DNA from: a virus
Taxonomy: Duplodnaviria; Caudoviricetes
Reading direction: 5' to 3' (one strand)
DNA length: 63,944 nt
IMG/VR virus record: IMGVR_UViG_3300048998_000126
Span: 1-63,944 of that record
Both the position numbers and the translations under genes were made by a program. Each line of letters opens with the position of its first letter. The first letter of the stretch is position 1. The notes under the pieces are model-generated. The model searched no databases. It had not been told where the DNA came from and was given only the letters and a program-made list of their open reading frames with translations. Positions 1,504 through 62,383 of the stretch are shown here, piece by piece.

Positions 1504-1532
1504 TTGATCAACCGTTTCAACTCATATATAGT
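1504..1532 (+). promoter_or_regulatory. Putative sigma70 promoter upstream of the AAA+ ATPase
   Basis: TTGATC-17 nt-TATAGT in an AT-rich intergenic gap. Confidence 0.6.
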
Positions 1533-1579: not shown

Positions 1580-1594
1580 TCACGACTGTCGTGA
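1580..1594. promoter_or_regulatory. Palindrome TCACGACTGTCGTGA (operator-like; extends to AATCACGACTGTCGTGATT)
   Basis: Perfect dyad between the promoter and RBS of the ATPase gene; one of 7 copies. Confidence 0.7.
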
Positions 1595-1619: not shown

Positions 1620-2771
1620 ATGAACGTCTCTCAACTCAAACCGATCATCGTCGCGCTGTACAACGCGGATATTACCGGCATGCTCTGGGGCGCGCCGGGT
1701 CTGGGCAAGTCGTACAGCTTCCGCGAAGCGGCCCGCGAACTGAAGACCCAGCTGGGTCTGACCGGTCCGGTACTGGAACGCCACGAGGTGCGCGGGTTCA
1801 TCCAGAGCGGCGGCGATATCAAGACCGCTTTCGGCATGTTCGACCTGCGTCTGAGCCAGTGCGATCCGGTGGACATCGGCGGTCTGCCGCGCGAGAACAA
1901 GGCCAACGGCACCATGGAACGTCTGCCGCCGAGCTGGTTTGCCCACACCCTGCGCAACGACCTGCCCGACTTCGGTATCCTGCTGCTGGACGAGCTGCCA
2001 TCGGCCCCGGCGTCGGTACAGAACGCGGCCTACCAGATCACGCTCGACAAGGTCATCGACGAGTACAAGCTGAAGGACGGTTGGGCTGTGTTCGGCGCGG
2101 GTAACCGCATGACCGATGGCGGCGTGTTCTTCAAGATGGCCATGGCGCTGGCCAACCGCATGTGCCACATCGACGTCGAGTCGAACCTGGACAGCTGGGT
2201 TGACTGGGCTATCGACAACAACATCGATCACAGCCTGCTGGCATTCATCCGCTTCAAGCCTGACCTCCTCAACGAGTTTGAGGCGCACGTGAAGGACAAG
2301 CGCAAGGGCTTGGCGTTCTCCACCGAGCGCGTGTGGGAGAAGACCAACGACTTTCTGGCGAACAACAGCCACGTCGACGGCGTGACCATGCAGGCGATCC
2401 TGGACGGCATCGTCGGACCTGGCCCGGCGGCGGAGTACATCGGTTTTCGCAAGGTCTGGCAGAACATGCCGGACATCAGCCAGATCTGTATCGATCCGCT
2501 GTCCGCGCCGCTGCCCGAAGACGCCGCGACGCAGTACGCTGTATGTACCGCCATGGCTGCCCAGTGCACCCACACGAACATCCCGAACATGTTCGCCTAC
2601 GTGGACCGGTTCACCGCCGCAGGCCGCGCGGAGCTGGCCCTGCTGTTCGTGAAGGACATGCAGCGCCGTGACGGCATCAACCGCGGGCAGAACAAGCCCG
2701 GCTATAAGTCCCCCGTAACAGCACCGGAGTACAGCGTGTGGGCGCACAAGAACAAAGAACTGTTCGGCTGA
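1620..2771 (+). CDS. MoxR/dynein-related AAA+ ATPase
   Basis: Walker A GAPGLGKS, D(L)RLSQxDPVDIxGLP motif, Walker B LLLDE, sensor-1 AGNR, arginine finger ALANR. Confidence 0.9.
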   Translation: MNVSQLKPIIVALYNADITGMLWGAPGLGKSYSFREAARELKTQLGLTGPVLERHEVRGFIQSGGDIKTAFGMFDLRLSQCDPVDIGGLPRENKANGTMERLPPSWFAHTLRNDLPDFGILLLDELPSAPASVQNAAYQITLDKVIDEYKLKDGWAVFGAGNRMTDGGVFFKMAMALANRMCHIDVESNLDSWVDWAIDNNIDHSLLAFIRFKPDLLNEFEAHVKDKRKGLAFSTERVWEKTNDFLANNSHVDGVTMQAILDGIVGPGPAAEYIGFRKVWQNMPDISQICIDPLSAPLPEDAATQYAVCTAMAAQCTHTNIPNMFAYVDRFTAAGRAELALLFVKDMQRRDGINRGQNKPGYKSPVTAPEYSVWAHKNKELFG

Positions 2772-2815: not shown

Positions 2816-3223
2816 ATGTGCGCGAACATGTTGCAGCTTGGGTGGAAGTGCAAGGGATGGACGACGTTGGGACGCCCCAACCACTTCCGCCAGAAGTTCG
2901 GCGACGTGTTCTACGCTATCAAGTCGGCGAACAACGGCGGCACCGAGTGGCGGGCGGAAATGTCGACGGGGCGGACGATACCGCTTCGAAAGACCGGTCA
3001 GAACGTCCACATCATGGCGAAAATAGAGGGGCCGCGTCTGCGCGGGCCTGTAGCGCTGGCCACGTGGCTGGCAGTGGAGATCCGAAATGGCTGTATCCGT
3101 ATTGACGAGAGCAAAGGCCCAGCTGGTGCTCCAGGAGCCGTTCTACGCGACGATCCTCCTGAACCTGAAGGTAGTGGAGACGGACAAGACCAATGGTCGC
3201 CCTTTGTGGATGGTCGCAACTGA
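2816..3223 (+). CDS. Small early protein, paralogous family member 5 (start uncertain)
   Basis: MLQLGW near the N-term and GPVALATWLAVEIRN just before the next gene start. The frame runs 137 nt into the vWA gene. Confidence 0.6.
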   Translation: MCANMLQLGWKCKGWTTLGRPNHFRQKFGDVFYAIKSANNGGTEWRAEMSTGRTIPLRKTGQNVHIMAKIEGPRLRGPVALATWLAVEIRNGCIRIDESKGPAGAPGAVLRDDPPEPEGSGDGQDQWSPFVDGRN

Positions 3224-4235
3224 CGGGGCGAACCTGTACGTCAACCCGGCCAACTTCGAAACGCTGTCGGTAGCCGAAGCCAAGGGCGCGCTCAAGCACG
3301 AGGTTATGCACATCGCGGGTATGCACCTGTGGCGTGGTGGCGGCAAAGAGGCGGACCGCTGGAACCAGGCTTGCGACTACTCGATCAACCCGATCATCCT
3401 GGACGAGGGCGGAGCGTTGCCGAGCGGCGTACTGGACGGGACACCGTTCAAGGGCATGAGCGCCGAGCAGATCTACAAGATCCTGCCGCCGTCCCCACCC
3501 AAGGACCCGAACGCGCCGCGCGATCCTAACGGCAACCCGCTAGATGACGACATGATGCCGCCGCAGAACCCTGGCGCGTCCGGCGAAGCAGCAGCCAAGG
3601 TGATGGTGGCTCAAGCGGCGGCAGTGGCCAAGGCTCAGGGTAAGCTGCCCGGCTCGCTGAAAGAGCTGGTGGACAGCGTCATGCGGCCAACGGTGGACTG
3701 GAAGGAACAGCTTCAACAGTTCCTGACCGAGATCGAGCCAGCGGACTACAGCTTTGCCCGGTGCAACCGCCGGTTCATCGCAGGCGATGCCTCGATCTAT
3801 CTGCCGGGTATGTCGTCGAACGACTCCATGCGCGAACTGGGCTACGTCAACGACACGTCGGGGTCGATCAGTCTGGACGAGATGCGCAAGGGCTTGGGCG
3901 AGATCGGCGGGGCCGTGGAGGACGTGAAGCCGTCGAAGCTGATCGTCGCTCACTGTGACTCGAAGGTTCAGCACCACGAGGTCTTCGATCACCCGTCGCT
4001 GGCGACAGTGACCGAGAAGCTGGAGCGTCACGGCGGGGGCGGTACGAACATGCCGGCGGCGCTGACGTGGTTTACCCGCAAGTTTCCAAATGTGCAGGCC
4101 GTGATTGTTTTTACTGATGGGGAGACCCCATTCGGGAGCGAAGATGACTACCCATTCCCAGTGCTTTGGGCTATTACCAGCAAGCGGATTACCGCTCCGT
4201 GGGGAACCACCGTCCATGTTGAACTTGACGGCTGA
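3087..4235 (+). CDS. HExxH metallopeptidase + vWA domain protein (DUF2201-like)
   Basis: ATDG..LYVNP, HEVMH zincin motif, WNxAxDxxIN, Pro-rich linker, then vWA MIDAS DTSGS / GGGGT / FTDG and PVLW. Confidence 0.9.
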   Translation: MAVSVLTRAKAQLVLQEPFYATILLNLKVVETDKTNGRPLWMVATDGANLYVNPANFETLSVAEAKGALKHEVMHIAGMHLWRGGGKEADRWNQACDYSINPIILDEGGALPSGVLDGTPFKGMSAEQIYKILPPSPPKDPNAPRDPNGNPLDDDMMPPQNPGASGEAAAKVMVAQAAAVAKAQGKLPGSLKELVDSVMRPTVDWKEQLQQFLTEIEPADYSFARCNRRFIAGDASIYLPGMSSNDSMRELGYVNDTSGSISLDEMRKGLGEIGGAVEDVKPSKLIVAHCDSKVQHHEVFDHPSLATVTEKLERHGGGGTNMPAALTWFTRKFPNVQAVIVFTDGETPFGSEDDYPFPVLWAITSKRITAPWGTTVHVELDG

Positions 4236-4485
4236 CGAGCTGGAACTGCTGAAAACACTGGGCTTCGTGCCCAGTGTTCTGACGCCGGGTCAGTGGACGA
4301 AGATGGTCGACGGCATCCAGATGGCGAAGCTTGTCCGACCGCCTAGCGGTGACTGGGAGATGACGACCTGGACGCGGCCGGGGGACGCGACAACGTACGA
4401 CAGCATGCTGCCGCGTAAGGCCCCGTTCAAGTCCCAGACCATCGGCCCGCTACTGACGTGGGCGCACGTTGAGGGGTTGATCTGA
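4216..4485 (+). CDS. Small early protein, paralogous family member 6
   Basis: N-term LTADELELLKTLGF, C-term FKSQTIGPLLTWAHVEG. Confidence 0.75.
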   Translation: MLNLTADELELLKTLGFVPSVLTPGQWTKMVDGIQMAKLVRPPSGDWEMTTWTRPGDATTYDSMLPRKAPFKSQTIGPLLTWAHVEGLI

Positions 4486-4844
4486 TGCGAGCGGGGAGAG
4501 CTACGCACCCTGGCGAAGACCACGCAATGAGAGAAGACCCGCGCATGCGCTGGTTCCCGATGTCGTGGTGTCTGTCTAACCACGACTGGTCCGAGTACAT
4601 CAAGAAGACCTGGCCGCATGTCTACGTGAACGGCGATGCGATCAAGAACTCGCCGACGAAAGACGATCCGCTTGGCGCCCGACCCTTTCTCGCGTTCGGC
4701 CACAACAGCGACAACCAGACGTTCCAGGTCAGGCTGTTTGACGAATCATCGCCGTGGCTCACACCGGACGCCGTGGAGGCTTATCTGTACATCCACTGGC
4801 CGGAATATTTCAGGAGAGGCAGCAATGGGCAGGCACCAGAATAA
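4485..4844 (+). CDS. Hypothetical protein (weak family resemblance)
   Basis: TGATG-coupled start. The C-term WLTPDAVEAYLYIHW only loosely matches the family motif. Confidence 0.6.
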   Translation: MRAGRATHPGEDHAMREDPRMRWFPMSWCLSNHDWSEYIKKTWPHVYVNGDAIKNSPTKDDPLGARPFLAFGHNSDNQTFQVRLFDESSPWLTPDAVEAYLYIHWPEYFRRGSNGQAPE

Positions 4845-5394
4845 ACCCTGGCAGAAGCGCTGGGTTCCGCAGCCGGGTCCGCGTGTCCAGAACGCCGGTT
4901 TCACTGCCCCGGCGACGCCAGAGGGGTGGCACCGACACGAGCGCACCGACTGGTGCGAATACCTCTCTGGGACCTGGGGTAACGGCTGGCGGGTCATCGG
5001 CAAAGCAGGCGTTAAGTGGAAGGTCTACGAGACAAAACTGGACTTCCTCCTGCACGACGAAACCTACGTTTCGAGCGATCTTGTTTTCGAATCCAACTCG
5101 TTCGAGGCGTGCGTAACCTTCGTCAAGATCGAGCAGTCCAACGAACCGGAGCGAGCCATCGGTATGGATTGGGCCGGTATCGAGTCGAAAACTGCGCGGC
5201 TGTCCTTGGGATACAACACTGGTCGGCGTCCGCTTAAGATTGGCGACTTGGTCGCAAGCGAAGCAGCCGCGCAAGACATGCTCGCCCAGTACCGCGCAGC
5301 GTTCATGGGCCAAGAGTTCACGACAGTCGTGATCGACGAGGCGGCTCAACTTGACTTTTCAAAGTTGGAGGACCGTGTCCATGCCCGCCCATAG
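4825..5394 (+). CDS. Paralogous family member 7 with C-terminal extension
   Basis: AGGAG SD. TPEGW ... FESNSFEACVTFVKIEQSN, followed by ~80 extra residues. Confidence 0.7.
   Translation: MGRHQNKPWQKRWVPQPGPRVQNAGFTAPATPEGWHRHERTDWCEYLSGTWGNGWRVIGKAGVKWKVYETKLDFLLHDETYVSSDLVFESNSFEACVTFVKIEQSNEPERAIGMDWAGIESKTARLSLGYNTGRRPLKIGDLVASEAAAQDMLAQYRAAFMGQEFTTVVIDEAAQLDFSKLEDRVHARP
5318..5332. promoter_or_regulatory. Palindrome TCACGACAGTCGTGA (intragenic)
   Basis: Exact copy inside the CDS, read as FTTVV. Confidence 0.65.
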
Positions 5395-5905
5395 TCAGAT
5401 CGAAACGTACACCAAGCGCTTCAGCGAGAACGTCGAGGCCGGGTGGGAGACTCTGCGCGCCCTCCATGAGTTGGGCTACGAGCTGGTGGCGCATCAAGAG
5501 CAGGAGCTGATGTTCATCCGCGCGAACACAGCAATCGTCCCTATAGCGATGTCCGGCCGTCTGGCCTGGATGCACAGCATGTCTACGCCAGTGCACCGCG
5601 TGAACCTCAACATGCGGCTTATGCGCGGCGAGCCTCATTTTACGGACGCCATGGCTGTCGCTGCTTGGTGGGAGATAGAGGTCGCGAACAACCCACAGCC
5701 TGAGCCTTACTCGGCTCCAGGGCCAGCAGCTCCGACGTGGCAAGGTCCGACACTCAATCCACAGCACGTCGCTGCTGGAGTGCCGTACGGCGGGCTGGCT
5801 CCAATAGCGAATCCTCCATGGGACGGCAACGTCTCGCCCAAGCAACAGGCCGAGATGGAGGCGTTTCTTTATGGGATTAATAGCGGTCGGGGCACTCGAT
5901 CATGA
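5381..5905 (+). CDS. Paralogous family member 8 with Pro-rich extension
   Basis: GGAGG SD. LRALHELGY ... HFTDAMAVAAWWEIEVANN, followed by a Pro/Ala-rich tail. Confidence 0.75.
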   Translation: MPAHSQIETYTKRFSENVEAGWETLRALHELGYELVAHQEQELMFIRANTAIVPIAMSGRLAWMHSMSTPVHRVNLNMRLMRGEPHFTDAMAVAAWWEIEVANNPQPEPYSAPGPAAPTWQGPTLNPQHVAAGVPYGGLAPIANPPWDGNVSPKQQAEMEAFLYGINSGRGTRS

Positions 5906-6246
5906 CACCGCTGTCACTGACCGACCTGGTCATGCCAGACGGGTGGTTCTGCGTGAACATGTCGGCGTCGGGTGTGGGATTGTACGAGAAGTGGTTTGTA
6001 GTGGAGAAACCCGCGTTCAGCTTACGTTTCGGTAACCCCGTCCACGCCGGAAAACATCAGACCAGGACTTATCGCGAAACCACCAAGTACCGAGTTTGCT
6101 TTAACGGCTTCTGTGGCGGATGGACAATACAGGAGAAGAAAACGGGCGTCGGCGACTGGCAGTGGTTTATGTCCGGTGTGGCCTTTCCTTCGCACGTAGG
6201 CGCAATGCTTGCCCTTGAGATAGAACTAAGTAATAATAAAGCCTGA
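5902..6246 (+). CDS. Small early protein, paralogous family member 9
   Basis: ATGA overlap. MPDGW ... AFPSHVGAMLALEIELSNN. Confidence 0.75.
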   Translation: MTPLSLTDLVMPDGWFCVNMSASGVGLYEKWFVVEKPAFSLRFGNPVHAGKHQTRTYRETTKYRVCFNGFCGGWTIQEKKTGVGDWQWFMSGVAFPSHVGAMLALEIELSNNKA

Positions 6247-6290
6247 TATATAGCTCTTACACACTTCCGAACTTAAAAAGAGTAACCAAC

Positions 6291-7160
6291 ATGACAAATG
6301 AATCCCGCATCCACGGCCACGCAATGCTCGTCGGCCTGAACGTCACCCAGTGGTCCGCCCGCAAAGTCGACAAGCGCGCCGCTGCCGAAGTCGCCAGTAC
6401 CCACAACGTCGCCAGCAACAAGGGCACCTACTACAAGTCGTTGGTAGAGGGCGGAGCGCTCGAAGAAATCAAGGTCATCGCCACCAAGGCCCGCGCAGCG
6501 CACTACCGCCGCACGCTGCCGTGGTCGGACGCCGGCCCGCGTATCCTGTCCAACATCGGGTACCTCGACTACATGGCCGAGATCGCCGCCCTGCGCGACG
6601 AGTTCGACGTTCAGGTCGAGAAGTTCGTTGTCGAGTACCCAGCGCTGCGCGAGGAAGCCAAGCGCTTGCTCGGTACCCTGTTCAACGAAGCCGACTACCC
6701 GAGCACCGCAGTCGTCTCCGCCAAGTTCTCGATGGAAACCGTTGTCATGCCGATTCCACGGGGCGAAGACTTTCGCTGCGACATCGGCGAGGCCGAAGTT
6801 GAAGCCATCCGCCAGTCGATTGAGCAGGGCAATACGCGCGCCGTCGAGACTTGCATGAGCGACGCCTTCAACCGAGTGTTGAAGGTCACCGAAGCGCTGA
6901 TGGACCGTCTCGGCGCCGAAGACGCTGTGTTCCGCGACACCCTGATCACCAACGCTCGCGACCTGGCCGACATCCTGCCGTCGCTGAACATCACCGGCGA
7001 CCCGGTCCTGACCGACTTGACGAACCAGCTGGTGAACAATATCTGCGTGCACGAGCCTGAGGCTCTGCGCCACAACAAGACCACCCGGCGCCAGGCGTAT
7101 GACGCCGCCATGAAAATGAACGCTGGGCTGATCGACTTTTTCTCCGGGGGTGCGCAATGA
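6291..7160 (+). CDS. Helical phage protein, DUF3150-like (commonly near MoxR/vWA genes)
   Basis: 289-aa ORF with LVxLNVxxWSxRKxD, TLPW..G.R.L and YP motifs. Family assignment is from recall. Confidence 0.6.
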   Translation: MTNESRIHGHAMLVGLNVTQWSARKVDKRAAAEVASTHNVASNKGTYYKSLVEGGALEEIKVIATKARAAHYRRTLPWSDAGPRILSNIGYLDYMAEIAALRDEFDVQVEKFVVEYPALREEAKRLLGTLFNEADYPSTAVVSAKFSMETVVMPIPRGEDFRCDIGEAEVEAIRQSIEQGNTRAVETCMSDAFNRVLKVTEALMDRLGAEDAVFRDTLITNARDLADILPSLNITGDPVLTDLTNQLVNNICVHEPEALRHNKTTRRQAYDAAMKMNAGLIDFFSGGAQ

Positions 7161-7765
7161 CTATCAAATCGAAACACGAACAGGAACTGGAAGCAGAGCT
7201 CAAGGGCCTGCTGTCCGGTGCGCTGTCGGCCAAGGATGTACTGAGCGGGCCGCGTAAAGCCGTTGCCAGCAAGCCGGGCGTTCCGTTGCCGACCGCCATG
7301 GACAAAACAGCGGAGGGGCTTCGCGAGCTGCGGGACGCGCACGTAAGTCCAGTCCCCGCCGGTGTCTATAGAGGCATTGGCGAACATATCCGTTCCCAGC
7401 CCGCGCTGGGGGCGCCCTATGGCCCGGCCACGGATAATCACGACAGTCGTGACCCGATGGCCCGCGTGCTGGACCTGCTCGAGCGGCTGGAGACCCGCAC
7501 CGTCCGTATGGAAACCCGGATCACCAACACCATGCGTTACCTGGGCTTCCCGCCCCGGGCGCCGCTCATGGACCCGCCGAGAGGGCGTGTGTGCTGGTCT
7601 GACGGCGATCTCGTGGTCACCGGCTCCAACGTGCCAGTGCGCGACATCAGTTGGCTCATGGCCCAGAGCAACCCTAAGCACGACGTGAGAATCGTCGTCA
7701 ATAACGTGGTGTGGGCAACCCTGCACCACCAACCTCAAGCCGCTTTCGGCGTAGAAGAGAACTAA
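7157..7765 (+). CDS. Hypothetical protein
   Basis: ATGA overlap with the upstream gene; 202 aa with a coiled-coil-like middle segment. Confidence 0.7.
   Translation: MTIKSKHEQELEAELKGLLSGALSAKDVLSGPRKAVASKPGVPLPTAMDKTAEGLRELRDAHVSPVPAGVYRGIGEHIRSQPALGAPYGPATDNHDSRDPMARVLDLLERLETRTVRMETRITNTMRYLGFPPRAPLMDPPRGRVCWSDGDLVVTGSNVPVRDISWLMAQSNPKHDVRIVVNNVVWATLHHQPQAAFGVEEN
7438..7452. promoter_or_regulatory. Palindrome TCACGACAGTCGTGA (intragenic)
   Basis: Exact copy inside the CDS, read in a different frame (NHDSRD). Confidence 0.65.
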
Positions 7766-7769
7766 GGCA

Positions 7770-8225
7770 ATGACCGACAACCTGATCCCGGTGGCAGACG
7801 TCACCAACGAACCCACCCGCGACGAAGTCCACGCGCAGAGCCGCGAGCACGTCGAGGGCGTGCTGAACCGTAAGGACAGCTATCTGATGATCGCGATCAA
7901 CGGCGAAATCGAGGGCGGCCTGAACGTCATCGCGGCGTGCGACGAAGGCCAGCTTAACGTGTTCTCGCTGGCGCTGATCCAGATGCTGGGGATGGAGATC
8001 ATGGGCCCTGATCGCGTCCAGGCTATCCCGCCGCAGATGATCGGCGCGGTAGCTACGGCGACCGGCCTGAAGCGTCTGAACGACGTGGTGCAGGCTCAGG
8101 CGCAGCAGGCGGCGCAAGCCATGCAGCCAGCGCAGACACCGGCAGGCGATATCAACGCCGCGCATAAGGAAGCAGCCGAAGGCTTCGCTTCAGTGGCAGC
8201 CCAGACCGATGGCAAGCCGGTTTAA
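7770..8225 (+). CDS. Hypothetical protein
   Basis: 151-aa ORF, tightly packed, typical codon usage. Confidence 0.75.
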   Translation: MTDNLIPVADVTNEPTRDEVHAQSREHVEGVLNRKDSYLMIAINGEIEGGLNVIAACDEGQLNVFSLALIQMLGMEIMGPDRVQAIPPQMIGAVATATGLKRLNDVVQAQAQQAAQAMQPAQTPAGDINAAHKEAAEGFASVAAQTDGKPV

Positions 8226-8487
8226 AGGCACCAACAAGCCCACTTACATGCGTTGCACCTCGACCCCTTGTCGCCACCGCTTCAAGGGGTTTGAGGGTGA
8301 CAAGTGCACCCTGTGCGGGAAGAACGCCACGGTCAATGCCGAGTACGTCGCCCGGCCTTGGCGTAAGCATTTGTGCTACTGCACGGGCATGGCGTGGGGC
8401 GACAGGGGTTCACCGCATCGGTATGGCAGCGGGGACTGCGATTTTAATCCGAGGAAATATCAACATGACCCAGACCAGCAAACCTGA
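8209..8487 (+). CDS. Cys/His-rich putative zinc-binding protein
   Basis: CxxxxC, CxxC and CxC...HRxGSxxC motifs. Confidence 0.65.
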   Translation: MASRFKGTNKPTYMRCTSTPCRHRFKGFEGDKCTLCGKNATVNAEYVARPWRKHLCYCTGMAWGDRGSPHRYGSGDCDFNPRKYQHDPDQQT

Positions 8488-8686
8488 GTTTGTCACCGTA
8501 GTAGTTCGCGTCGACGACCCCGAAGCTGCCCAGCCGTGGCTCCACACCGTCGGTGCTGCGTTCGCGGAAAAAGAAACCATCGCCGGGATCACCGTCACCG
8601 GTATGGCGAACAGCGACGAGATGACCCGCGTCGAATACCTGGAAGGCCTGTTGGACGAGGAGAATATCCATTATGACCAGGCGTGA
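8465..8686 (+). CDS. Hypothetical protein
   Basis: GAGG SD before ATG 8465; overlaps the ligase start. Confidence 0.7.
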   Translation: MTQTSKPEFVTVVVRVDDPEAAQPWLHTVGAAFAEKETIAGITVTGMANSDEMTRVEYLEGLLDEENIHYDQA

Positions 8687-9596
8687 ACCGAAGAAACCTA
8701 ACCTGGCCTGCGACGCCCCGGACGACATTGTCTTCCCGGTCTACGCCAGCCCGAAGATGGACGGCATCCGTGTCACGGTCTGGAACGGCGTCCCGTTGAC
8801 CCGTGCACTCAAGGACGTGCCGAACCATTACATCCGCGACACGATCAAGGCGGCGAACCTGCCCGCTGTGTTCGATGGCGAGCTGGTCGTGGGCAGCCCG
8901 ATGGCTCACGACTGTATCAACAAGACCACGTCAGGGGTGATGTCCCGCGACGGCCGGCCGGACTTTACGTTTTTCGTGTTCGACTATGTGCCGCTGGACT
9001 TCAGCGACGGAAGCCCGGACAGGAGCAGCACGTTCAGCGAGCGTTCCACTCGTTTGGCTACGCAGACATCGTCGTTTCAGGCGTTCCACCCGTGGTTCAA
9101 GATCCTGGAGCAAAAGCTTATCCAGAGCCCTGAAGAACTGGCGGCGTTCGAAGCTGAGCAGCTTACACTTGGTTTCGAGGGGGTGATCGTCTGCAACCCC
9201 CACGCGCTTTACAAGCACGGCCGCAGCACGGCGAAAGAGCAGGGGAAAATGAAGGTCAAACGCTTCAAGGACGCCGAGGCGATAGTGATCGGAGTTTATG
9301 AGCTGATGCGCAACGACAACCCGGCGACCACCAACGCGCTGGGGCACACCGAGCGCTCCAGCCACAAGGCCAACCTCGTGCCGATGGGCATGCTCGGCGC
9401 GCTGATCTGCCGTACGCCGGAGGGTGTCGAGTTCGAGATCGGTACCGGCTTCACCTACCTGCAACGCACGGTGCTGTGGCAGATGCGGGATCAGTTGGTC
9501 GGCCGGCTCGCGAAGTACAAGTTCTTCCCGGTGGGCGTCAAGGATAAGCCTAGGCACCCGGTGTTCCTGGCGTGGCGTGATTTGTCGGACGTGTGA
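8673..9596 (+). CDS. lig: ATP-dependent DNA ligase (minimal type)
   Basis: Motif I SPKMDGIR, motif III FDGEL, IIIa FFVFD, IV FEGVI, V KVK, and OB-fold GTGF ... PRHPVF. Confidence 0.93.
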   Translation: MTRREPKKPNLACDAPDDIVFPVYASPKMDGIRVTVWNGVPLTRALKDVPNHYIRDTIKAANLPAVFDGELVVGSPMAHDCINKTTSGVMSRDGRPDFTFFVFDYVPLDFSDGSPDRSSTFSERSTRLATQTSSFQAFHPWFKILEQKLIQSPEELAAFEAEQLTLGFEGVIVCNPHALYKHGRSTAKEQGKMKVKRFKDAEAIVIGVYELMRNDNPATTNALGHTERSSHKANLVPMGMLGALICRTPEGVEFEIGTGFTYLQRTVLWQMRDQLVGRLAKYKFFPVGVKDKPRHPVFLAWRDLSDV

Positions 9597-9597
9597 C

Positions 9598-9858
9598 ATG
9601 GCTTTCTCGACGCTGGTTACGGATCTGAACTCGCTGCGCCCCAGCGACGCGGTGTGCGAATACATGGCCGATAAAGGGTTTGTATGGAACAAGACGTTCG
9701 AGAATTTCCACATTCCGATTACTGGGTCGCGAGTGGTGTATCCGACTAAGGCTCGGACAGGGGCAACTTGGGCATGGACCACCGGCAAAACGCGCTGCGG
9801 TAACTTCGACTCGCCGATTACCGCGTACGTGAACGCCGAACTGGCAGGGTGGGAGTGA
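9598..9858 (+). CDS. Small early protein, paralogous family member 10
   Basis: CEYMADKGF ... NFDSPITAYVNAELAGW. Confidence 0.8.
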   Translation: MAFSTLVTDLNSLRPSDAVCEYMADKGFVWNKTFENFHIPITGSRVVYPTKARTGATWAWTTGKTRCGNFDSPITAYVNAELAGWE

Positions 9859-10100
9859 TGGGCAGATCAAGACGCAAGAACAACGATTTTCGTTTCATCC
9901 GTGGGCTCGGCTTCGTTCGCGCTATGCACCAGCCAGCACCGCGGCCGATCATGTTTACCCGAGGCAAGTGCTGCCTGTTCAAGCGCGGCGCGCACTGGTA
10001 CGCGGGGCGGTTAGGCGACGGCGATTTGACTTCGCCGGTCTTCGGATCGAACGCCACGGCGGCTTACCTGTACGCGCTTTGCGAAGGCTGGACGCAATGA
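9858..10100 (+). CDS. Small early protein, paralogous family member 11
   Basis: TGATG coupling. FRFIRGLGF ... VFGSNATAAYLYALCEGW. Confidence 0.75.
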   Translation: MGRSRRKNNDFRFIRGLGFVRAMHQPAPRPIMFTRGKCCLFKRGAHWYAGRLGDGDLTSPVFGSNATAAYLYALCEGWTQ

Positions 10101-10384
10101 GCCTGACAACCAGCCCGTACGCCAAGCCAGACGAGATCGCCTACCTCGAGGCGCGCGGCTACCGCGACACGTGGGGAGGCTGGCGCTTGTTCGAGAAACC
10201 CTTGAGCGGCCATGACGTGGACCGTCGCAACCCCTTTAAAAACGTAGTCCTGAGCCGCTACGTCGACGAACAATACTGCTGGCAGGCGTGCGCTTCGGAG
10301 GTAGCTCATTCGATGGGGCAGCCGTTCCCCGATCCCATAGCAGCCTTTGTTGACGCTGAGATCAGGAACTGGGGGCGGGTATGA
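10097..10384 (+). CDS. Small early protein, paralogous family member 12
   Basis: ATGA overlap. DEIAYLEARGY ... PFPDPIAAFVDAEIRNW. Confidence 0.8.
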   Translation: MSLTTSPYAKPDEIAYLEARGYRDTWGGWRLFEKPLSGHDVDRRNPFKNVVLSRYVDEQYCWQACASEVAHSMGQPFPDPIAAFVDAEIRNWGRV

Positions 10385-10629
10385 AACACAAGGACAGGGA
10401 GTTCTTTCGCGATTTGGGTTGGAAGCAGTTTCATAACAACTGCGACAACGACTGGCACGACGTTAGTACGGGGCGCTACGTGCAGATATCTTGGAACCAG
10501 GGCGTTTCGTATTGGCGCGCTATTCACAGCACCAGCGGCCCCGCCGCACGCTACTGGATAGGGCCTCGGCTAGATTGCCCGATTGCGGCCTACGTCCACG
10601 CGGAGCTGGAAAACTGGGGAGAACCCTAA
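10381..10629 (+). CDS. Small early protein, paralogous family member 13
   Basis: ATGA overlap. DREFFRDLGW ... RLDCPIAAYVHAELENW. Confidence 0.8.
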   Translation: MKHKDREFFRDLGWKQFHNNCDNDWHDVSTGRYVQISWNQGVSYWRAIHSTSGPAARYWIGPRLDCPIAAYVHAELENWGEP

Positions 10630-10889
10630 TGGCATTTACCAGCGACGAAATACAGTTCATGGCTGCGCACGGCTGGGATATACAGCCCGACGGCGTGACG
10701 TTCCGAGATCGTAGCTACCGGGAGACGAGCTGGATTGAACACGGCCCGTTCGGTTGGCAGATGGTCACTGATCACATCGGGAACGACCAGTTCGGCGAGT
10801 TCGACCATCGTGTGACTAGAAGCGAGACCTTCGACAGCCCTATCGCTGTCGTCGTATCAATGGAAATAGACCGGAGCAACAACCAATGA
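10629..10889 (+). CDS. Small early protein, paralogous family member 14
   Basis: TAATG coupling. SDEIQFMAAHGW ... TFDSPIAVVVSMEIDRSN. Confidence 0.8.
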   Translation: MAFTSDEIQFMAAHGWDIQPDGVTFRDRSYRETSWIEHGPFGWQMVTDHIGNDQFGEFDHRVTRSETFDSPIAVVVSMEIDRSNNQ

Positions 10890-11671
10890 GCGATACAACC
10901 GTACCAACAGGTCCGCGCCACGTCTCGATTGACCTCGAGACACTGGGCATCAAGCCCACCGCTTTGATCCTCTCCATCGGCGCCGTGGCGTTCGATCCGA
11001 AGACCGGCGAGCAGACCGACGACGGCTTCTATCGGATCGTCGACATCGCCCACGCCATCGGCGGCGGAGACATCGACCCCAGCACCGTCAACTGGTGGAT
11101 GAAGCAGTCGCAGGCGGCGCGCGACGAGATCTTCGGCGACGTCAACGCAGAGCAGCGGGTAAACCTGCGCGTGGCCCTGAGCGAGCTGAGCGACTACCTG
11201 GGCTTCAGCGAGGCCATCCCCGAGGGCGAGTTCCCGGATCTGGTTCTATGGGCGCGAGGGAGCAAGGACGAGCAGTGGCTGGACTCGGCTTACAAGGGCA
11301 TGCAGCTGGCTCCGCCGTTCGCGTACTGGCAGTGGAAGGACGAGCGCACGTTTACCGGCTACTTCAAACAGTTCCTGCCGGACCGCGGCGAGCTGGTGGC
11401 ACACAATGCGTTCGACGATGCCTTGTACCAATCGCTCTGCGTGAGCGCGGTGTTCCGCCGGCTGGCTGCTATCGGCCATAACGTGGGCTGGAAGAAAGCC
11501 GAGAAAATCACGACTGTCGTGAATTCTGAAAACGAAGGCTCGGAGGTAGAGCCGTGGGTTGGCCATGCGGCGCCGGCTTACATCGCTCCGCCGCCAGCGG
11601 ACGTGTCGGACTGGGAAGACAGTCATAAGGTCGACCCAGAAAATGACCACCCGAATACGGCCCATTCCTAA
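10886..11671 (+). CDS. DEDDh-family 3'-5' exonuclease
   Basis: VSIDLETLG (Exo I), ILSIGAV, T..WW..Q and HNAFDDA (Exo III). Confidence 0.85.
   Translation: MSDTTVPTGPRHVSIDLETLGIKPTALILSIGAVAFDPKTGEQTDDGFYRIVDIAHAIGGGDIDPSTVNWWMKQSQAARDEIFGDVNAEQRVNLRVALSELSDYLGFSEAIPEGEFPDLVLWARGSKDEQWLDSAYKGMQLAPPFAYWQWKDERTFTGYFKQFLPDRGELVAHNAFDDALYQSLCVSAVFRRLAAIGHNVGWKKAEKITTVVNSENEGSEVEPWVGHAAPAYIAPPPADVSDWEDSHKVDPENDHPNTAHS
11508..11522. promoter_or_regulatory. Palindrome TCACGACTGTCGTGA (intragenic)
   Basis: Exact copy in the 3' tail of the exonuclease gene (ITTVV). Confidence 0.65.
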
Positions 11672-11682
11672 ACCGGCCTAGA

Positions 11683-11728
11683 TTGTACACGGGTGTCCAG
11701 TTATTATACTCGACACCCGTTTTTGTTT
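11683..11728 (+). terminator. Intrinsic terminator-like hairpin overlapping a putative sigma70 promoter
   Basis: ACGGGTGTC(11689-97)/GACACCCGT(11712-20) stem followed by TTTTGTTT; TTGTAC-16 nt-TATACT is superimposed. Confidence 0.6.
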
Positions 11729-11741
11729 GAGGAGAACCACC

Positions 11742-11975
11742 ATGACCGACTGGGCCAAGGCCTACAACGGCCTATCCGCCGCAGGCTTCACCGACGACCA
11801 GATCGCTGGGCTGGCGGGGGTGACCCGCGCCGTTATCAACTCGGTGCGCAATGGCAACTACGCGTTCAGGCACGAGCCCGGCTACGAGGGCGGCAAGACC
11901 GTTCTGGCCAACCTGACCCACGCCATCGACATGGGCTGGATCGATCACGATCCCCTAGCGGAGCCGACACCATGA
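11742..11975 (+). CDS. Small HTH (Cro/XRE-like) DNA-binding protein
   Basis: GAGGAG SD; GFTDDQIAGLAGVTRAVINSVRNG...EP.Y fits an HTH pattern. Confidence 0.7.
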   Translation: MTDWAKAYNGLSAAGFTDDQIAGLAGVTRAVINSVRNGNYAFRHEPGYEGGKTVLANLTHAIDMGWIDHDPLAEPTP

Positions 11976-12121
11976 AAAATGCTCTCTTCCTCGCCATGCT
12001 ATTCCTGTTCGGGGCAATCAGCTACGGCGTGTCCGGCCTCGGCGAGGCGCAGCACATAGTCGTAATGACAGGGGTGGTTGTCCTTATGTGGACTACGAAG
12101 CTGTGGGAGTCGATGCCGTGA
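11972..12121 (+). CDS. Small membrane protein
   Basis: ATGA overlap; 49 aa with two hydrophobic stretches. Confidence 0.55.
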   Translation: MKNALFLAMLFLFGAISYGVSGLGEAQHIVVMTGVVVLMWTTKLWESMP

Positions 12122-14354: not shown

Positions 14355-14652
14355 AGATCCTTGGGACTGGCACCCTACCGGCGTAAAATGTCAGGACAAA
14401 CATACCTGGATCGTCTATCTGACTTTCCGTATCCGGGAGTGCCACGATTGTGGCGCTGCCGAACCACTTTGGGCCGACTTTGGTTTCGGCAGGATAGGGC
14501 TTTCCGATGAAGAACATTTCCCCGAACAGCAACGACCGTCTACGGATCGGCCTGACGAAGTCGCTGGAGACGTTCGACGCGCTGATCAAGACGATCAGAT
14601 GCCCGAAAACTCGCCGCGTGCTGGAGAGCAAGGCTGCCGCCACCCGGGCTAA
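14341..14652 (+). CDS. Hypothetical protein with CxxC (uncertain)
   Basis: C..KH.W...ECHDCG motif; the 3' half overlaps a competing ORF. Confidence 0.4.
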   Translation: MSCPEDPWDWHPTGVKCQDKHTWIVYLTFRIRECHDCGAAEPLWADFGFGRIGLSDEEHFPEQQRPSTDRPDEVAGDVRRADQDDQMPENSPRAGEQGCRHPG

Positions 14653-14674
14653 AGTCGAGCAGGTCCGCGACTGA
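14507..14674 (+). CDS. Hypothetical protein (55 aa)
   Basis: MKNISPNSNDRLRIG...VEQVRD; its TGA overlaps the methyltransferase ATG. Confidence 0.5.
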   Translation: MKNISPNSNDRLRIGLTKSLETFDALIKTIRCPKTRRVLESKAAATRAKVEQVRD

Positions 14675-57941: not shown

Positions 57942-58018
57942 TGGTAGCGAGGCCAGGATTCGAACCCGGGATCTCAAGGTTATGAGCCTTGCGAGATAGA
58001 CCACTTCTCCACCACGCT
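57942..58018 (-). tRNA. tRNA with CAT anticodon (Met or Ile2)
   Basis: AGCGTGG/CCTCGCT acceptor stem (one mismatch), GAGA/TCTC D stem, CAAGG-CTCATAA-CCTTG, CCGGG-TTCGAAT-CCTGG and encoded CCA. Confidence 0.88.
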
Positions 58019-58162: not shown

Positions 58163-58371
58163 GAATTTTTACGGGAAAATATTTTTATGGAGGGTTGCTA
58201 AGTTGGCATAAAATTAGCTTACGGGGTGTTTAGTAGCTATACATGAGGAAATTAGGGTTCGTCATGTCGGGGCAATGGGTAAGGCATACCCTCGTTGCGC
58301 CCCAGCCCCCACGCCCGCCCTCGCTGGCCGGAAAGAATCCTTTTGTTGTGGGGAGTGCCTGCCCTGGCGGG

Positions 58372-58386
58372 TCACGACTGTCGTGA
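58372..58386. promoter_or_regulatory. Palindrome TCACGACTGTCGTGA
   Basis: Intergenic, about 40 nt upstream of an extended -10 (TGGTATAGT 58424-58432). Confidence 0.7.
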
Positions 58387-58483
58387 TTTGGAGATGACAC
58401 GGACGACACGCTTGAAACGGTTGTGGTATAGTTCGATCTCGTTGTGCTACTCGGCACAGCGCCACACTTCTGGAGACACACAC

Positions 58484-59170: not shown

Positions 59171-59216
59171 CTAACCCTTAGCTAAGCTATACCAAACTCA
59201 TTTGTATACCTTATGT

Positions 59217-59249
59217 AAGCCCTCTGAGCAGCCAGCAGAGGGCTTTTTC
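59217..59249 (+). terminator. Intrinsic terminator
   Basis: AAGCCCTCTG...CAGAGGGCTT stem running into a T tract. Confidence 0.8.
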
Positions 59250-59860: not shown

Positions 59861-59906
59861 TGCACTACCGGCAGTATAAAGAGACCTAACCAACGAGGTG
59901 ACACCG

Positions 59907-60838: not shown

Positions 60839-60853
60839 TCACGACAGTCGTGA
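60839..60853. promoter_or_regulatory. Palindrome TCACGACAGTCGTGA
   Basis: Intergenic, just upstream of the RBS of the 60876 ORF. Confidence 0.7.
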
Positions 60854-62037: not shown

Positions 62038-62295
62038 ATGACCCGCCCAACGCCTGTAACCATCGCCCAGCTTCAAACCCAAGTCCATTTGTTGAACGAA
62101 CTAAGCGGCTCGCCGGCGGAAGCCGTTGTCGACGGAGCCTGGCAAATTGGGAACTATCATCTGTCGCTGGCGAACGGCGGTGCGGGCCTGTGCCGCGTCT
62201 ACAACCTGCATGGGGCGGCAACGTCGGTTACCGGCCACATCGGCAAGCGCACGCTGCTGGGGATCATCACCGGGATGGTCAACAACCTGTCTTAA
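62038..62295 (+). CDS. Hypothetical early protein
   Basis: GGAG SD after an AT-rich gap. Confidence 0.7.
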   Translation: MTRPTPVTIAQLQTQVHLLNELSGSPAEAVVDGAWQIGNYHLSLANGGAGLCRVYNLHGAATSVTGHIGKRTLLGIITGMVNNLS

Positions 62296-62309
62296 CTGTC
62301 GAAACAGAG

Positions 62310-62324
62310 TCACGACAGTCGTGA
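62310..62324. promoter_or_regulatory. Palindrome TCACGACAGTCGTGA
   Basis: Intergenic; flanks extend the dyad imperfectly (ACAGAG...TTCTGT). Confidence 0.7.
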
Positions 62325-62383
62325 TTCTGTCCGTGTGCGGGTGGCTCCCGCCGCGCTGAAGATGACAAGCCCGAGGACTGCCC

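Follow-up and report, generated by a model that had tools for sequence, protein, structure and literature searches.

The window analysed here, a stretch of viral DNA of 63,944 nucleotides, begins and ends with the same 127 bases, which indicates that the genome is a circle of 63,817 bp; no palindrome site falls within this overlap. An exact scan found the 15-base palindrome TCACGACWGTCGTGA exactly seven times, at positions 1580, 5318, 7438, 11508, 58372, 60839 and 62310 (Table 1), and so recovered the seven copies that an earlier note on this DNA had named. No exact match was found in 100 dinucleotide-preserving shuffles of the window. When up to three mismatches were allowed, the same seven sites were returned and none was found at one to three mismatches, against 1.86 loose matches expected by chance. 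Within this genome the motif is all-or-nothing, and a half-site of 10 nt at 8906 is its sole further trace. Alignment of the flanks of the seven copies showed that conservation is limited to the 15 bases. Moreover, palindromes with 6-nt arms reached at most two copies in 40 shuffles of the window, compared with the seven observed.

All seven sites lie inside an arc of 16,953 bp, or 0.266 of the circle (P ~0.0025 for seven random points). The single stretch of about 17 kb described earlier is thus borne out, and the degenerate scan gave no even spread of copies over the genome. Using crude gene calls made for this analysis, four of the seven sites are fully intergenic, as the earlier note had also counted, whereas only 8.1% of the genome is intergenic. 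The three intragenic copies do differ in frame, in that 5318 and 11508 share a codon phase and 7438 has another, and the claim that selection acts on the sites as DNA sequence is supported.

Table 1. Palindrome copies and neighbouring features of the window
Feature	Position	Strand	Context
Palindrome copy 1, central T	58372..58386		Strand-divergence region, flanked by the clade-conserved box (58330-58344) on one side and the predicted early promoter on the other
Palindrome copy 2, central A	60839..60853		Intergenic; the ATG at 60876 follows after 22 nt, AGGAG between
Palindrome copy 3, central A	62310..62324		Intergenic, stem III tip of the hammerhead-II-like element
Palindrome copy 4, central T	1580..1594		Intergenic; the MoxR-like ATPase gene starts 25 nt further on, at 1620
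Palindrome copy 5, central A	5318..5332		In the 3' end of ORF 4825-5394, peptide EFTTVVID
Palindrome copy 6, central A	7438..7452		In ORF 7157-7765, peptide NHDSRD
Palindrome copy 7, central T	11508..11522		In the non-conserved C-terminal tail of exonuclease ORF 10886-11671, peptide ITTVVN
Early promoter candidate ACGACA-18-TATAGT, TG before the -10 hexamer	58403..58432	+	Consensus match only
Sigma-70-like promoter candidate TTGATC-17-TATAGT	1504..1532	+	Consensus match only
Box GGAAAGAATCCTTTT	58330..58344	.	Clade-conserved, shortly before the first palindrome
Variant type II hammerhead-like element	62294..62378	+	Around site 62310
First early gene, 228 aa	58484..59170	+	After copy 1; weak candidate binder
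Conserved ~100-aa protein, invariant R-x-E-x-R-(x5)-R helix	7457..7765	+	Speculative candidate binder

Copy 1 is fully intergenic and ends 17 nt before the -35-like hexamer of the early promoter candidate. Four relatives (G002, G003, G004 and G006) have a -10-like hexamer at 18-40 nt downstream from their first palindrome. A GGAAAAGAAT(T/C)CTTT-like box is present in all eight aligned genomes, and the box at 58330-58344 is constant between lineages whereas the palindrome is not. Relative to the sigma-70-like candidate, copy 4 would sit at about +40 to +55 of the leader, and a -10-like TAGTGT box occupies a similar place in G002 and G006; such promoter-like consensus matches occur at chance frequency (two found for this candidate, 2.6 expected in shuffles).

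Homology with the sister genome L098 stops 2 bp past copy 2, where the downstream gene is replaced, and again 2 bp past copy 7, where L098 has about 144 extra bases. The segment 62044-62382, which holds the gene at 62038-62295 and the hammerhead-like element with copy 3, is missing from L098. Copy 5, 48 nt upstream of the next gene's ATG at 5381, is kept in L098 and G001. Copy 6 lies 4 nt before an in-frame ATG at 7457 that opens a clade-conserved domain of about 100 residues, and its HDSRD peptide is retained in P0130 and P0138 despite a highly divergent N-terminal half. The early arm is hyperplastic, with most early genes of the window having no homologue in the relatives.

Palindromes of the related genomes

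Relatives were found through the MoxR ATPase. Those with at least 44% identity in this protein carry an exact multi-copy palindrome of their own in the same early arm, with the exceptions of L060 and L100-L102. These four are among 13 further loci in which no palindrome with 6-7-nt arms reached the copy threshold. Of the 13, nine besides L060 and L100-L102, or ten by the search rows, have a MoxR identity of at most 36%, L060 has 45%, and the short contigs L100-L102 reach 62-64%. The window, L098 and G001 share TCACGACWGTCGTGA. The other motifs are TCCCTA-N3-TAGGGA (9, 14 and 8 copies in G002, G003 and L099, respectively), TCCCTACWGTAGGGA (G004, 12 exact copies and one variant), GTCCTAATTAGGAC (G005, 13 copies), GTCCTAGNCTAGGAC (L108, 14 copies), GTCCTA-N4-TAGGAC (L107, 10 copies), TAACTA-N4-TAGTTA (G006, six copies) and GTCCTACGTAGGAC (L113, four copies). 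The clade therefore holds at least seven motif variants, with 4-14 sites per relative; in shuffles of four complete genomes any palindrome reached at most 2-4 copies.

The 12 data sets together contain 106 exact copies and only four sites with one or two arm mismatches. Three of the 106 are duplicates, G001 being a fragment of the L098 type. By the same crude gene calls, 74 of the 103 non-duplicate sites are fully intergenic and a further 15 partly so, compared with 8-23% intergenic DNA. The arms are invariant within each genome while the spacers drift, and no copy with both arms altered yet still pairing was seen among these sites. This suggests that the sequence itself is read and that pairing ability alone is insufficient. 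Three sites are exact in a relative of 85% identity, where the flanks drop to 48-63%. Of the 31 sites in the TCCCTA-N3 genomes, 22 have AAG or CTT as their spacer, split 11:11 relative to transcription, and the window and L098 spacers are CAG (seven) or CTG (six). The spacing between the 6-mers also differs by lineage, being 2, 3 or 4 nt.

A genome-specific palindrome is found upstream of the MoxR gene in G002 (6691), G003 (19888), G004 (1586) and G006 (49707), and in L098 (9961) and L099 (7105) one lies 40 and 47 nt, respectively, before the start of the MoxR match. The position of copy 4 is syntenic with that of the relatives' own, differing palindromes. In the scan of relatives proposed in the earlier note, TCACGACWGTCGTGA is shared with G001 and L098, but it is absent from G002-G006, where matches at up to three mismatches did not exceed the control level and other palindromes stand instead. 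The family-wide, lineage-specific nature of the motif is a feature that the earlier reading overlooked. Taken together, the sites are real, exact, confined to the early arm, mostly ahead of genes and replaced as a set between lineages.

Among 2.9 million viral contigs, exact TCACGACWGTCGTGA occurs in 44 stretches, and only one contig, G001, has it more than once (three copies). By Megablast, a 12-kb piece matched none of 50,697 phage records. The nearest cultured relative by protein is Pseudomonas phage Rollin (DNA polymerase 48%, capsid 58%), in which no dispersed palindrome was found. The first 500 bases of the Rollin record contain a cluster of imperfect repeats of about 23 bp.

The replacement of motifs between lineages that probably infect different hosts is what would be expected if the phages exploited sites of a host transcription factor. 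This is, however, highly improbable, since perfect identity of all copies is atypical of host regulons. Moreover, bacterial and archaeal genomes contain at least 120 stretches with the motif, and the matches listed are single and scattered over many phyla, apart from one MAG with two on separate contigs; no host regulon carrying the motif was seen among them. Many of the 80 stretches compared, among the matches listed, lie in a common stretch of 18-20 bases, which was taken, untranslated, for a coding ITTVV-type motif.

Hammerhead ribozymes, transcripts and possible cassette borders

In ten of the 11 type II hammerheads in the clade, stem III is tipped by the palindrome of the genome concerned, and these ten span three motif types. 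As a perfectly paired stem extension in these elements, the motif is certainly transcribed and folded as RNA there. This embedding was also overlooked in the earlier reading. In the window, the element around copy 3 runs through GUC-GAAAC, a stem III with the palindrome, a GUC cleavage triplet, stem I and then CUGAAGA, followed by one extra U that separates A9 from stem II. It matches the clade hammerhead model R1 over its full length (positions 1-82; 40.1 bits, E ~1e-8 to 1e-9), and all three stems and both core strands align, the extra U making it a core variant. The same extra U is present in the L099 element at 1591-1677. The window element is not listed against the Rfam model RF02276 at E<=1 for the whole window or E<=10 on 201 bases, and thus falls below that model, whereas the G002 and G003 elements attain its gathering score. 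On these alignments, 62294-62378 is classed as a putative variant type II hammerhead.

Type II hammerheads (Rfam RF02276; Perreault et al. 2011) are known from intergenic phage DNA, for example in PaP3 and Bcep176, and the account in PMC3088659 includes multi-hammerhead arrangements around accessory genes. The elements described here share the intergenic phage location, and those of G002 and G003 score as members of RF02276. They differ in the lineage-specific palindrome, which tips stem III in ten of 11 elements and is also dispersed outside ribozymes. In the main texts of the literature searched there was no description of the palindromes of this clade or of palindromes in hammerhead stem III.

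These elements raise the question of whether the palindrome acts as RNA generally, a reading that, like cassette recombination, the earlier note had overlooked. Within leaders and intercistronic spacers of early polycistronic mRNAs, the palindrome would then fold into a stem of 6 bp closed by a loop of 3 nt, to be read by a phage RNA-binding protein or endoribonuclease, and would serve in processing, 3'-end protection or translational control alongside the self-cleaving hammerheads. The paired stem III tips, found with three motif types, are consistent with such a role, as is an arm spacing of 2-4 nt, which is the range of minimal hairpin loops. In G002-G006, 26 of 55 sites precede a called start by 50 nt or less, the spacer contains GGAG at two G006 sites and is followed there by an ATG 9 nt later, and flank pairing of at least 3 bp extends the stem at 12 of 62 sites, compared with 1.7% of random positions. 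The added pairing, however, mostly reflects sequence that the sites have in common (CCG..CGG in G004, CACA..TGTG in G003), as opposed to covariation. The loops vary in sequence, AAG and CUU being equally common relative to transcription. In addition, the predicted early promoter follows the first site, cleavage within coding sequence at 5318, 7438 and 11508 would cut mRNAs, and a second G003 palindrome that immediately follows a hammerhead (13354) would be redundant for processing. Sequence-specific recognition of a plain A-form stem is, moreover, uncommon where neither a loop nor a bulge is contacted. An RNA-level element is considered rather unlikely.

Phage N4 has short conserved hairpins upstream of its early genes, and a second hairpin-based reading is that the palindromes are promoters of this type, read by a virion-packaged RNA polymerase. 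The geometry fits, early genes being closely preceded by a 6-bp stem and 3-nt loop; relatives of the MoxR ATPase occur in N4-like phages, and a virion protein of 1914 aa is encoded. That protein nevertheless appears polyvalent, with LPD39 and DarB-like C-terminal matches and atlas neighbours that are all LPD families, and it has no PDB sequence match at E<=1; in contrast to N4, no virion RNA polymerase was detected by sequence. The loop base is A or T with no strand bias. In G006, moreover, the palindrome spacer holds the GGAG Shine-Dalgarno sequence of a conserved gene start (MRKIT), which means that the transcript must start upstream of the palindrome. Promoters of this type have scarcely any probability.

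The breakpoints noted above in the comparison with L098 bear on a third reading, namely that the palindromes act mainly as short patches of homology bordering early-gene cassettes, through which recombination shuffles accessory genes and copying maintains identity. Breakpoints within 5 bp of a palindrome exceed the random expectation for the window and L098 (2/7, P 0.04), G002 and L099 (3/9, P 0.003) and G003 and L099 (4/14, P 0.001), though not for G002 and G003 (1/9, P 0.37), so that breakpoints and sites coincide in three of four genome pairs; the test is biased, because a conserved 15-mer at a gene border ends BLAST alignments whatever its function. Gene-plus-palindrome indels (window 62044-62382 and L098 4653-5081), spacers that look shared by descent, with flipping, and an early arm in which most window genes lack homologues in the relatives are all in keeping with cassette exchange. 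A precedent is given by the PeSL elements of T4-type phages, described in PMC2839356 and PMC4122927 as units of some 50-70 bp that combine a sigma-70 consensus promoter with a GC-rich terminator hairpin. In the accounts given there, short elements are repeated before accessory early genes, in hyperplastic regions and at the junctions of indels and replacements, a setting that the present sites may share. Here, in contrast, conservation extends over 14-16 bp only, without adjoining promoter hexamers, promoter-like matches occurring at chance frequency and at variable distance, and no sigma-70 promoter plus GC-rich terminator hairpin of the PeSL type was seen. Fifteen bases are also very short for homologous recombination, and perfect arms on both sides of drifting spacers indicate selection on the arm sequence. 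A principal role as cassette linkers is therefore judged improbable.

A candidate operator array

That each relative has its own exact palindrome at equivalent places indicates that the sites behave as recognition sites of a specific, co-evolving trans-acting factor. The most economical reader is a symmetric dimer that binds double-stranded DNA, given the invariant arms, the drifting spacers, the 11:11 orientation of the spacers and the position of the first site upstream of the predicted early promoter. The equal numbers of AAG and CTT argue against a reader of RNA loops, which would treat AAG and CUU differently. Lying upstream of the early -35/-10-like boxes in the window and in four relatives, the first site is probably not transcribed from that promoter. 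The suggestion of the earlier note that the copies bind a dimeric phage protein is partly supported by these comparisons. We regard it as an evenly balanced proposition that the palindromes serve as identical operators at which a DNA-binding phage regulator, probably a dimer and co-evolving with its sites, controls the early regulon. We infer that the reader is a protein, that it binds DNA and not RNA, and that binding represses.

In the proposed mechanism, a phage-encoded, sequence-specific factor would recognise the 15-bp palindromes in cis and co-evolve with them. It would most likely be a symmetric dimer on double-stranded DNA contacting two half-sites of 6-7 bp about 9 bp apart centre to centre; half-site spacings of 8-10 bp fit dimers of the HTH or RHH type. 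One copy would flank the main early promoter, and the others would occupy leaders or intercistronic stretches, shortly before the ribosome-binding sites of early and pre-replicative genes, such that one protein on all copies would control the entire early arm together. The most likely effect would be repression, or a roadblock-type shut-off, at the switch to replication and late genes. Where intergenic space is filled by a ribozyme, the site may be housed at the tip of stem III as the sole place that tolerates a palindrome. Four observations sit less easily with operators. The 2-4 nt variation in spacing would be expected of a hairpin loop more than of homologous dimers; ten of 11 hammerheads hold the motif as paired RNA; most sites are downstream of any plausible promoter at variable distance, whereas classical operators sit elsewhere; and 14 invariant positions exceed the information that an operator needs.

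Many identical palindromes of 13-16 bp in one sector of a replicon resemble parS sites and the OB sites of RK2 KorB, and a ParB- or KorB-like clamp or spreading protein loaded at such sites could silence or organise the early arm, or partition a plasmid-like form. The clustering of identical palindromes at variable positions relative to promoters would suit this, and G004 encodes a ParA-like ATPase. ParA was seen in G004 only, however, no ParB- or KorB-like domain was found in 53 ORFs of the window or 88 ORFs of three relatives, and nothing that would point to a plasmid-like or lysogenic way of life was found. Loading sites of this kind are very improbable, and the partition role entertained earlier loses ground with them.

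With regard to operators of a dimeric regulator, close parallels exist in the conserved inverted repeats (CIRs) of the Streptomyces phage phiC31, bound by the c repressor, and in the KorB OB and KorA OA palindromes of plasmid RK2. In both systems multiple, highly conserved, intergenic palindromic operators are under a single global regulator. OB is built as a 6+1+6 palindrome whose centre is degenerate, much as the window motif is built as a 7+1+7 palindrome. Whereas phiC31 and RK2 are a temperate phage and a plasmid with known repressors, the present phage is apparently lytic, its binder is putative and its motif also lies within ribozymes.

The earlier note had also considered stoperator-like roadblocks. 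As set out in PMC6550527, the stoperators of Cluster A mycobacteriophages are asymmetric 13-bp sites, oriented with transcription and read by a monomer, of which up to about 30 are spread over the whole genome of these temperate phages. In L5, Bxb1 and other Cluster A phages the motif and the immunity repressor differ between related phages and change together, according to PMC6550527 and PMC9283540. The likeness holds for the many near-identical short sites dispersed in intergenic DNA, mostly away from promoters, and for a motif that varies between related phages. It fails for asymmetry and orientation with transcription, since the sites here are palindromes with spacers split 11:11; they are, moreover, free of orientation and confined to the early arm, number 4-14 per genome and are accompanied by no repressor or integrase that could be found.

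Temperate actinophages and plasmids are known to carry identical operators in dispersed arrays; here the same logic is displayed by an apparently lytic, uncultivated clade of soil phages of about 60 kb. What is new is that a perfect palindrome is replaced as a whole set between lineages, in at least seven variants, that it marks nearly every early-gene junction, and that it appears to be built into ribozymes of the self-cleaving type between some early genes. The clade offers a natural series in which to study how a regulator and its 4-14 scattered sites change specificity jointly. It may also supply orthogonal protein/site pairs for synthetic biology, possibly with ribozyme insulators, and in metagenomic phage genomes the genome's own exact palindrome could serve as a signature that delimits the early regulon and the cassette borders.

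A bolder combination would have the same lineage-specific protein act on DNA, as the ligand of early-arm operators, and on RNA, at the hammerhead tip, where it would gate self-cleavage and the fate of early mRNA. The 15-mer would in addition be the joint for cassette exchange within one 'barcode', isolating lineages recombinationally. This dual use is unlikely, and if true would represent a natural protein-regulated hammerhead in a phage-wide, fast-evolving regulatory code.

Candidate binding proteins

Pfam and PHROGs searches of 53 + 31 window ORFs, in which small ORFans received no assignment, revealed no repressor, integrase or partition gene, in line with the earlier remark that no integrase is visible in this phage. 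The only DNA-binding matches in the window's early arm were a weak NrdR/Ogr-type zinc ribbon (62638-62931) and the HTH protein at 21770. The same searches found no DNA-binding family shared among 88 early ORFs of G002, G004 and L108, and a scan for zinc-ribbon patterns gave nothing universal. A 289-aa family showed only weak DUF3150 matches, in two of its 11 members, and homologue searches returned unnamed proteins only.

Each of the three binders put forward earlier is weakened by these comparisons. The family of the HTH protein at 11742 is absent, by HMM, from the palindrome-bearing G005 and L108, both of which cover the region. That of the HTH protein at 21770 occurs also in Rollin, where no dispersed array was found. 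The 58484 protein belongs to a family present in six data sets (HMM), and AlphaFold models a helical core for it with confidence (mean pLDDT 77.7), but it has no DNA-binding or other PDB match, neither the model nor profile searches giving a significant one. Both AlphaFold models made here were searched with Foldseek and VIA, together with profile-to-PDB searches, and nothing rose above background.

The second model is that of the protein at 7457..7765, which has no PDB or Pfam match. It is predicted to comprise one long helix and a small alpha/beta domain (pLDDT 80.7). Its family was not found in Rollin, and is present in all 12 of the palindrome-bearing data sets.

A palindrome array in the early arm of the window and its relatives

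An exact and degenerate scan of the window recovered the 15-bp palindrome TCACGACWGTCGTGA at the same seven positions as had been reported by eye in the earlier note, and at no others. No additional site appeared at up to three mismatches, against 1.86 loose matches expected by chance, and 100 shuffles of the window gave no match. The window is a complete IMG/VR virus record; as its opening 127 bases recur at its end, it was treated as a circle of 63,817 bp. All seven sites fall within a 16,953-bp arc of this circle (chance ∼ 0.0025). This arc opens a plus-strand arm that starts at the strand-divergence point (near 58.3 kb) and leads past small genes of unknown function into the replication genes. 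The minus-strand arm (25.4–57.7 kb), encoding virion, packaging and lysis proteins, contains no copy, and the proposed confinement to the early arm therefore stands. Crude gene calls likewise agree with the described division into four intergenic and three intragenic sites, the latter encoding FTTVV and ITTVV in one codon phase and HDSRD in another. Identity among the seven copies is limited to the 15 bases, and the flanks do not align. A lone half-site, TCACGACTGT, with its other half unmatched, is present inside the ligase gene at 8906–8915.

Three of the sites are conserved in a relative, as a reading of them as binding sites demanded: G001, a 17-kb IMG/VR fragment with 85% identity across window positions 3887–11975, carries exact palindromes at the syntenic positions of sites 5318, 7438 and 11508 (3/3), and the flank on one side of each shows 48–63% identity or an indel. 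Relatives were gathered via the MoxR-like ATPase, and repeated palindromes were sought in each without a prior motif. In every relative with a MoxR identity of at least 44%, this arm holds a palindrome of that genome's own in multiple exact copies (see the table). In shuffles of four complete genomes (40 each), no palindrome with 6-nt arms exceeded two to four copies. No palindrome with 6–7-nt arms reached the copy threshold in 13 further loci, mostly with MoxR identities of 36% or below and including three short contigs at 62–64% that are too small to judge. The motif of the window did not rise above the level of a reversed-pattern control in G002–G006. Among the complete genomes, clustering was evident in G002, where nine sites occupy 10.2 kb of a 58.7-kb genome, in G006 (six within 10.6 kb out of 60.6 kb) and in G004 (12 in half the circle). 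The palindrome is a clade-wide feature, swapped as an entire set between lineages, and the observation is both real and stronger than the sequence-only note could show.

Within any genome the arms are invariant and the central bases vary. In genomes with the TCCCTA-N3-TAGGGA motif the spacer is AAG or CTT at 22 of 31 sites, divided 11:11 relative to transcription, and most other spacers differ from these by a single change. The window and its sister genome L098 together have a CAG centre at seven sites and a CTG centre at six. Copies in which both arms are altered yet still pair are absent among these sites, and only four sites in all 12 data sets depart from the exact motif by one or two mismatches in the arms. 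We conclude that the copies are related by descent, that the arms are strongly selected on sequence and that the palindrome functions in either orientation. Such use favours recognition of double-stranded DNA, as the reader of an RNA loop would distinguish AAG from CUU, and this speaks against the palindrome as an RNA hairpin ligand, a role that we regard as unlikely. We give roughly even odds to the palindromes being a set of identical operators bound by a phage regulator, probably a dimer, that co-evolves with them and controls the early arm, most likely by shut-off or as a roadblock. The array is comparable in its working to stoperators, the CIRs of phiC31 or the KorB sites of RK2; however, the palindrome lacks the asymmetry and orientation that define stoperators.

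Features of the window and of related phage genomes and contigs (G and L numbers)
Feature	Location	Detail
Site 58372	window 58372	97 nt before start
Site 60839	window 60839	22 nt before start
Site 62310	window 62310	59 nt before start
Site 1580	window 1580	25 nt before start
Site 5318	window 5318	48 nt before ATG at 5381
Site 7438	window 7438	4 nt before in-frame ATG at 7457, which opens the clade-conserved domain
Site 11508	window 11508	219 nt before next called gene
Box GGAAAAGAAT(T/C)CTTT	window 58330–58344	GGAAAGAATCCTTTT in window
Box TAGTGTAAACT...TA(C/T)ACA	G002 6640–6690 and 10262–10287; G003 23945–23971; G006 49723–49770	
Hammerhead, type II	G003 13277–13352	47.6 bits (Rfam)
Hammerhead, type II	G002 1893–1968	46.2 bits (Rfam)
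Hammerhead	G003 14609–14707	74.5 bits (clade model)
Hammerhead	L099 1591–1677	60.9 bits (clade model)
Hammerhead	L107 3964–4045	51.4 bits (clade model)
Hammerhead-like	window 62294–62378	40.1 bits (clade model)
Hammerhead-like, type II	L098 4652–4729	33.7 bits (clade model)
Palindrome TCACGACWGTCGTGA	L098 (G001 is a fragment of this type)	6 in 21 kb
Palindrome TCCCTACWGTAGGGA	G004	12 exact, 1 variant
Palindrome TCCCTA-N3-TAGGGA	G002, G003, L099	9, 14 and 8 copies
Palindrome GTCCTAATTAGGAC	G005	13 copies
Palindrome GTCCTACGTAGGAC	L113	4 copies
Palindrome GTCCTAGNCTAGGAC	L108	14 copies
Palindrome GTCCTA-N4-TAGGAC	L107	10 copies
Palindrome TAACTA-N4-TAGTTA	G006	6 copies
MoxR-like ATPase	window 1620–2771	four-gene set
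DUF2201 metallopeptidase/vWA	window 3087–4235	four-gene set
289-aa protein	window 6291–7160	four-gene set
∼ 100-aa Arg-rich-helix protein	window 7457–7765	four-gene set
1914-aa virion protein	window 32676–38420 (−)	polyvalent-protein type; LPD39 domain; C-terminal 700 aa like DarB-type giant proteins
tRNA, anticodon CAU	window 57945–58018 (−)	59.8 bits; first minus-strand-arm gene, adjoins strand-divergence region

Gene junctions, hammerhead ribozymes and cassette borders

The 12 data sets contain 106 exact sites, or 103 once three G001 duplicates are dropped; 74 of these are fully and 15 partly intergenic, with intergenic DNA amounting to 8–23% by crude gene calls. In G002–G006, a called start codon follows within 50 nt at 26 of 55 sites, typically with a conserved ribosome-binding context immediately 3′ of the site, and some others become start-proximal if starts missed by the caller are read by eye. 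All seven window sites are upstream of a possible start. A site stands ahead of the MoxR gene at the syntenic place in the window (1580), G002, G003, G004 and G006, with differing sequences. The first site of each genome lies within the strand-divergence region, 18–40 nt upstream of a −10-like hexamer, whereas the order at the MoxR gene is promoter-like box, palindrome and ribosome-binding site. Its placement with respect to promoters is thus not constant. That the palindrome is itself an N4-type promoter is hardly credible.

Just upstream of the first palindrome is a nearly palindromic box, GGAAAGAATCCTTTT in the window, that is kept in all eight genomes aligned and is constant across lineages while the adjoining palindrome changes; conserved GGGTAAG and C-rich blocks are located farther upstream. 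This box may have a role common to these genomes, in control, as an origin or in packaging. A further box, TAGTGTAAACT...TA(C/T)ACA, recurs 16–44 nt upstream of some relatives' palindromes, with TATAGT at the syntenic place in the window, and may be a clade-specific promoter or the site of a second regulator.

In both type II hammerheads confirmed by Rfam, the palindrome forms the tip of stem III. A clade model was built from six palindrome-bearing elements, the consensus fold of which shows covariation in stems I and III, and recovered five additional full-length elements outside its training set. Stem III holds the palindrome of the element's own genome in 10 of the 11 elements, spanning three motif types; the sole exception is that of L098, located in a 429-bp segment absent from the window. 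The window element has three stems, GUC-GAAAC and CUGAAGA, and one extra U before stem II, a core variant that recurs in L099. Because it was not reported by the Rfam hammerhead model, this predicted element is termed hammerhead-like. Hammerheads in phage intergenic regions are already known (PMC3088659); a limited literature search turned up no account of such ribozymes incorporating a dispersed, lineage-specific palindrome. Overall, the palindrome is read by sequence and works in either orientation; its places are early-gene junctions, the early promoter and the ribozymes that incorporate it.

Homology between the window and L098 stops 2 bp past sites 60839 and 11508. L098 lacks the segment 62044–62382, which comprises one small gene and the hammerhead-like element around site 62310; it carries in turn a hammerhead and a gene missing from the window. 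Breakpoints within 5 bp of a palindrome exceed random points in three of four same-motif pairs (window/L098, 2/7 sites, P 0.04; G002/L099, 3/9, P 0.003; G003/L099, 4/14, P 0.001; G002/G003, 1/9, P 0.37), although this test is biased, because a conserved 15-mer at a gene border ends alignments whatever its function. The enrichment and the gene-plus-palindrome segment differences would fit a cassette linker; we consider this improbable as the primary function. The borders resemble the PeSL cassettes of T4-type phages (PMC2839356; PMC4122927), but the palindrome lacks the attached promoter that defines PeSLs.

Candidate readers and gene content

The binders suggested in the earlier note fared less well. 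The helix-turn-helix family at 11742 is missing from G005 and L108, both of which cover that region, and that at 21770 is also present in Pseudomonas phage Rollin, which has no dispersed array. Rollin is the nearest cultured phage by protein (DNA polymerase 48%, major capsid 58% identity), followed by the KPP25 group (28%); no close relative at the DNA level was found in the phage collection. The product of the first early gene (58484–59170), the third suggestion, gave no significant structural or profile match; it has homologues in six data sets, with plausible remote ones in three more, and its predicted model has a confident helical core.

The ∼ 100-aa protein, in which an R-x-E-x-R-(x5)-R helix is invariant, is encoded in 12 of 12 palindrome-bearing data sets, a universality that is not independent evidence because sampling went through the neighbouring MoxR gene. 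It was not found in Rollin, and its predicted model gave no match. Its long ORF form, with HDSRD encoded by site 7438, is retained in two homologues (P0130 and P0138). A weak NrdR/Ogr-type Zn ribbon (62638–62931) is restricted to the window and L098. No reader was identified among the proteins examined. Integrase, repressor, ParB and RNA polymerase were not detected among the window ORFs scanned, and a ParB/KorB-like loading site is considered very improbable. Among the matches listed in bacterial genomes, motif hits are scattered and single, so a host regulon is unlikely; many share an 18–20-base stretch, which we took for a coding motif. A host-factor site is considered highly improbable.

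The early/middle arm of the window encodes a MoxR-like ATPase, a DUF2201 vWA protein, an ATP-dependent ligase, an Rv2179c-type exonuclease, a family A polymerase, a DNA methylase, a PD-(D/E)XK nuclease, a SNF2 helicase and a DUF927 primase-helicase. The four-gene set is found in all relatives sampled and not in Rollin; the MoxR-like ATPase has relatives in N4-like phages also, and two of 11 members of the 289-aa family gave weak DUF3150 matches. The 1914-aa virion protein, which matches no PDB sequence and gives no sign of a polymerase, is probably ejected together with the DNA.

Directly 3′ of the first early gene, ∼ 770 bp (59170–59943) carry no called gene and lie in the region of lowest GC in the genome (58–60 kb, 0.51); in the equivalent part of G003 (12084–12862), four palindromes are accompanied by GCTTAGC-type repeats and a terminator-like hairpin. 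A gene (19979–21712) for a 577-aa product of unknown function contains, at 20760–21550, runs of tandem 15-bp repeats, such as AGCTCCACAGCAACA in five copies. The early arm of G004 encodes a ParA/MinD-type ATPase (L085:2618–3310, −) and a protein whose DNA-binding domain is of the MvaT type, like the H-NS-like proteins of Pseudomonas (L085:4843–5268, −), the latter hinting at a Pseudomonas-like host. G002 has two NinX-like genes and a 115-aa ORF (L082:13048–13395) with a match (E 7.5e-24) to the family of R67-type dihydrofolate reductases.
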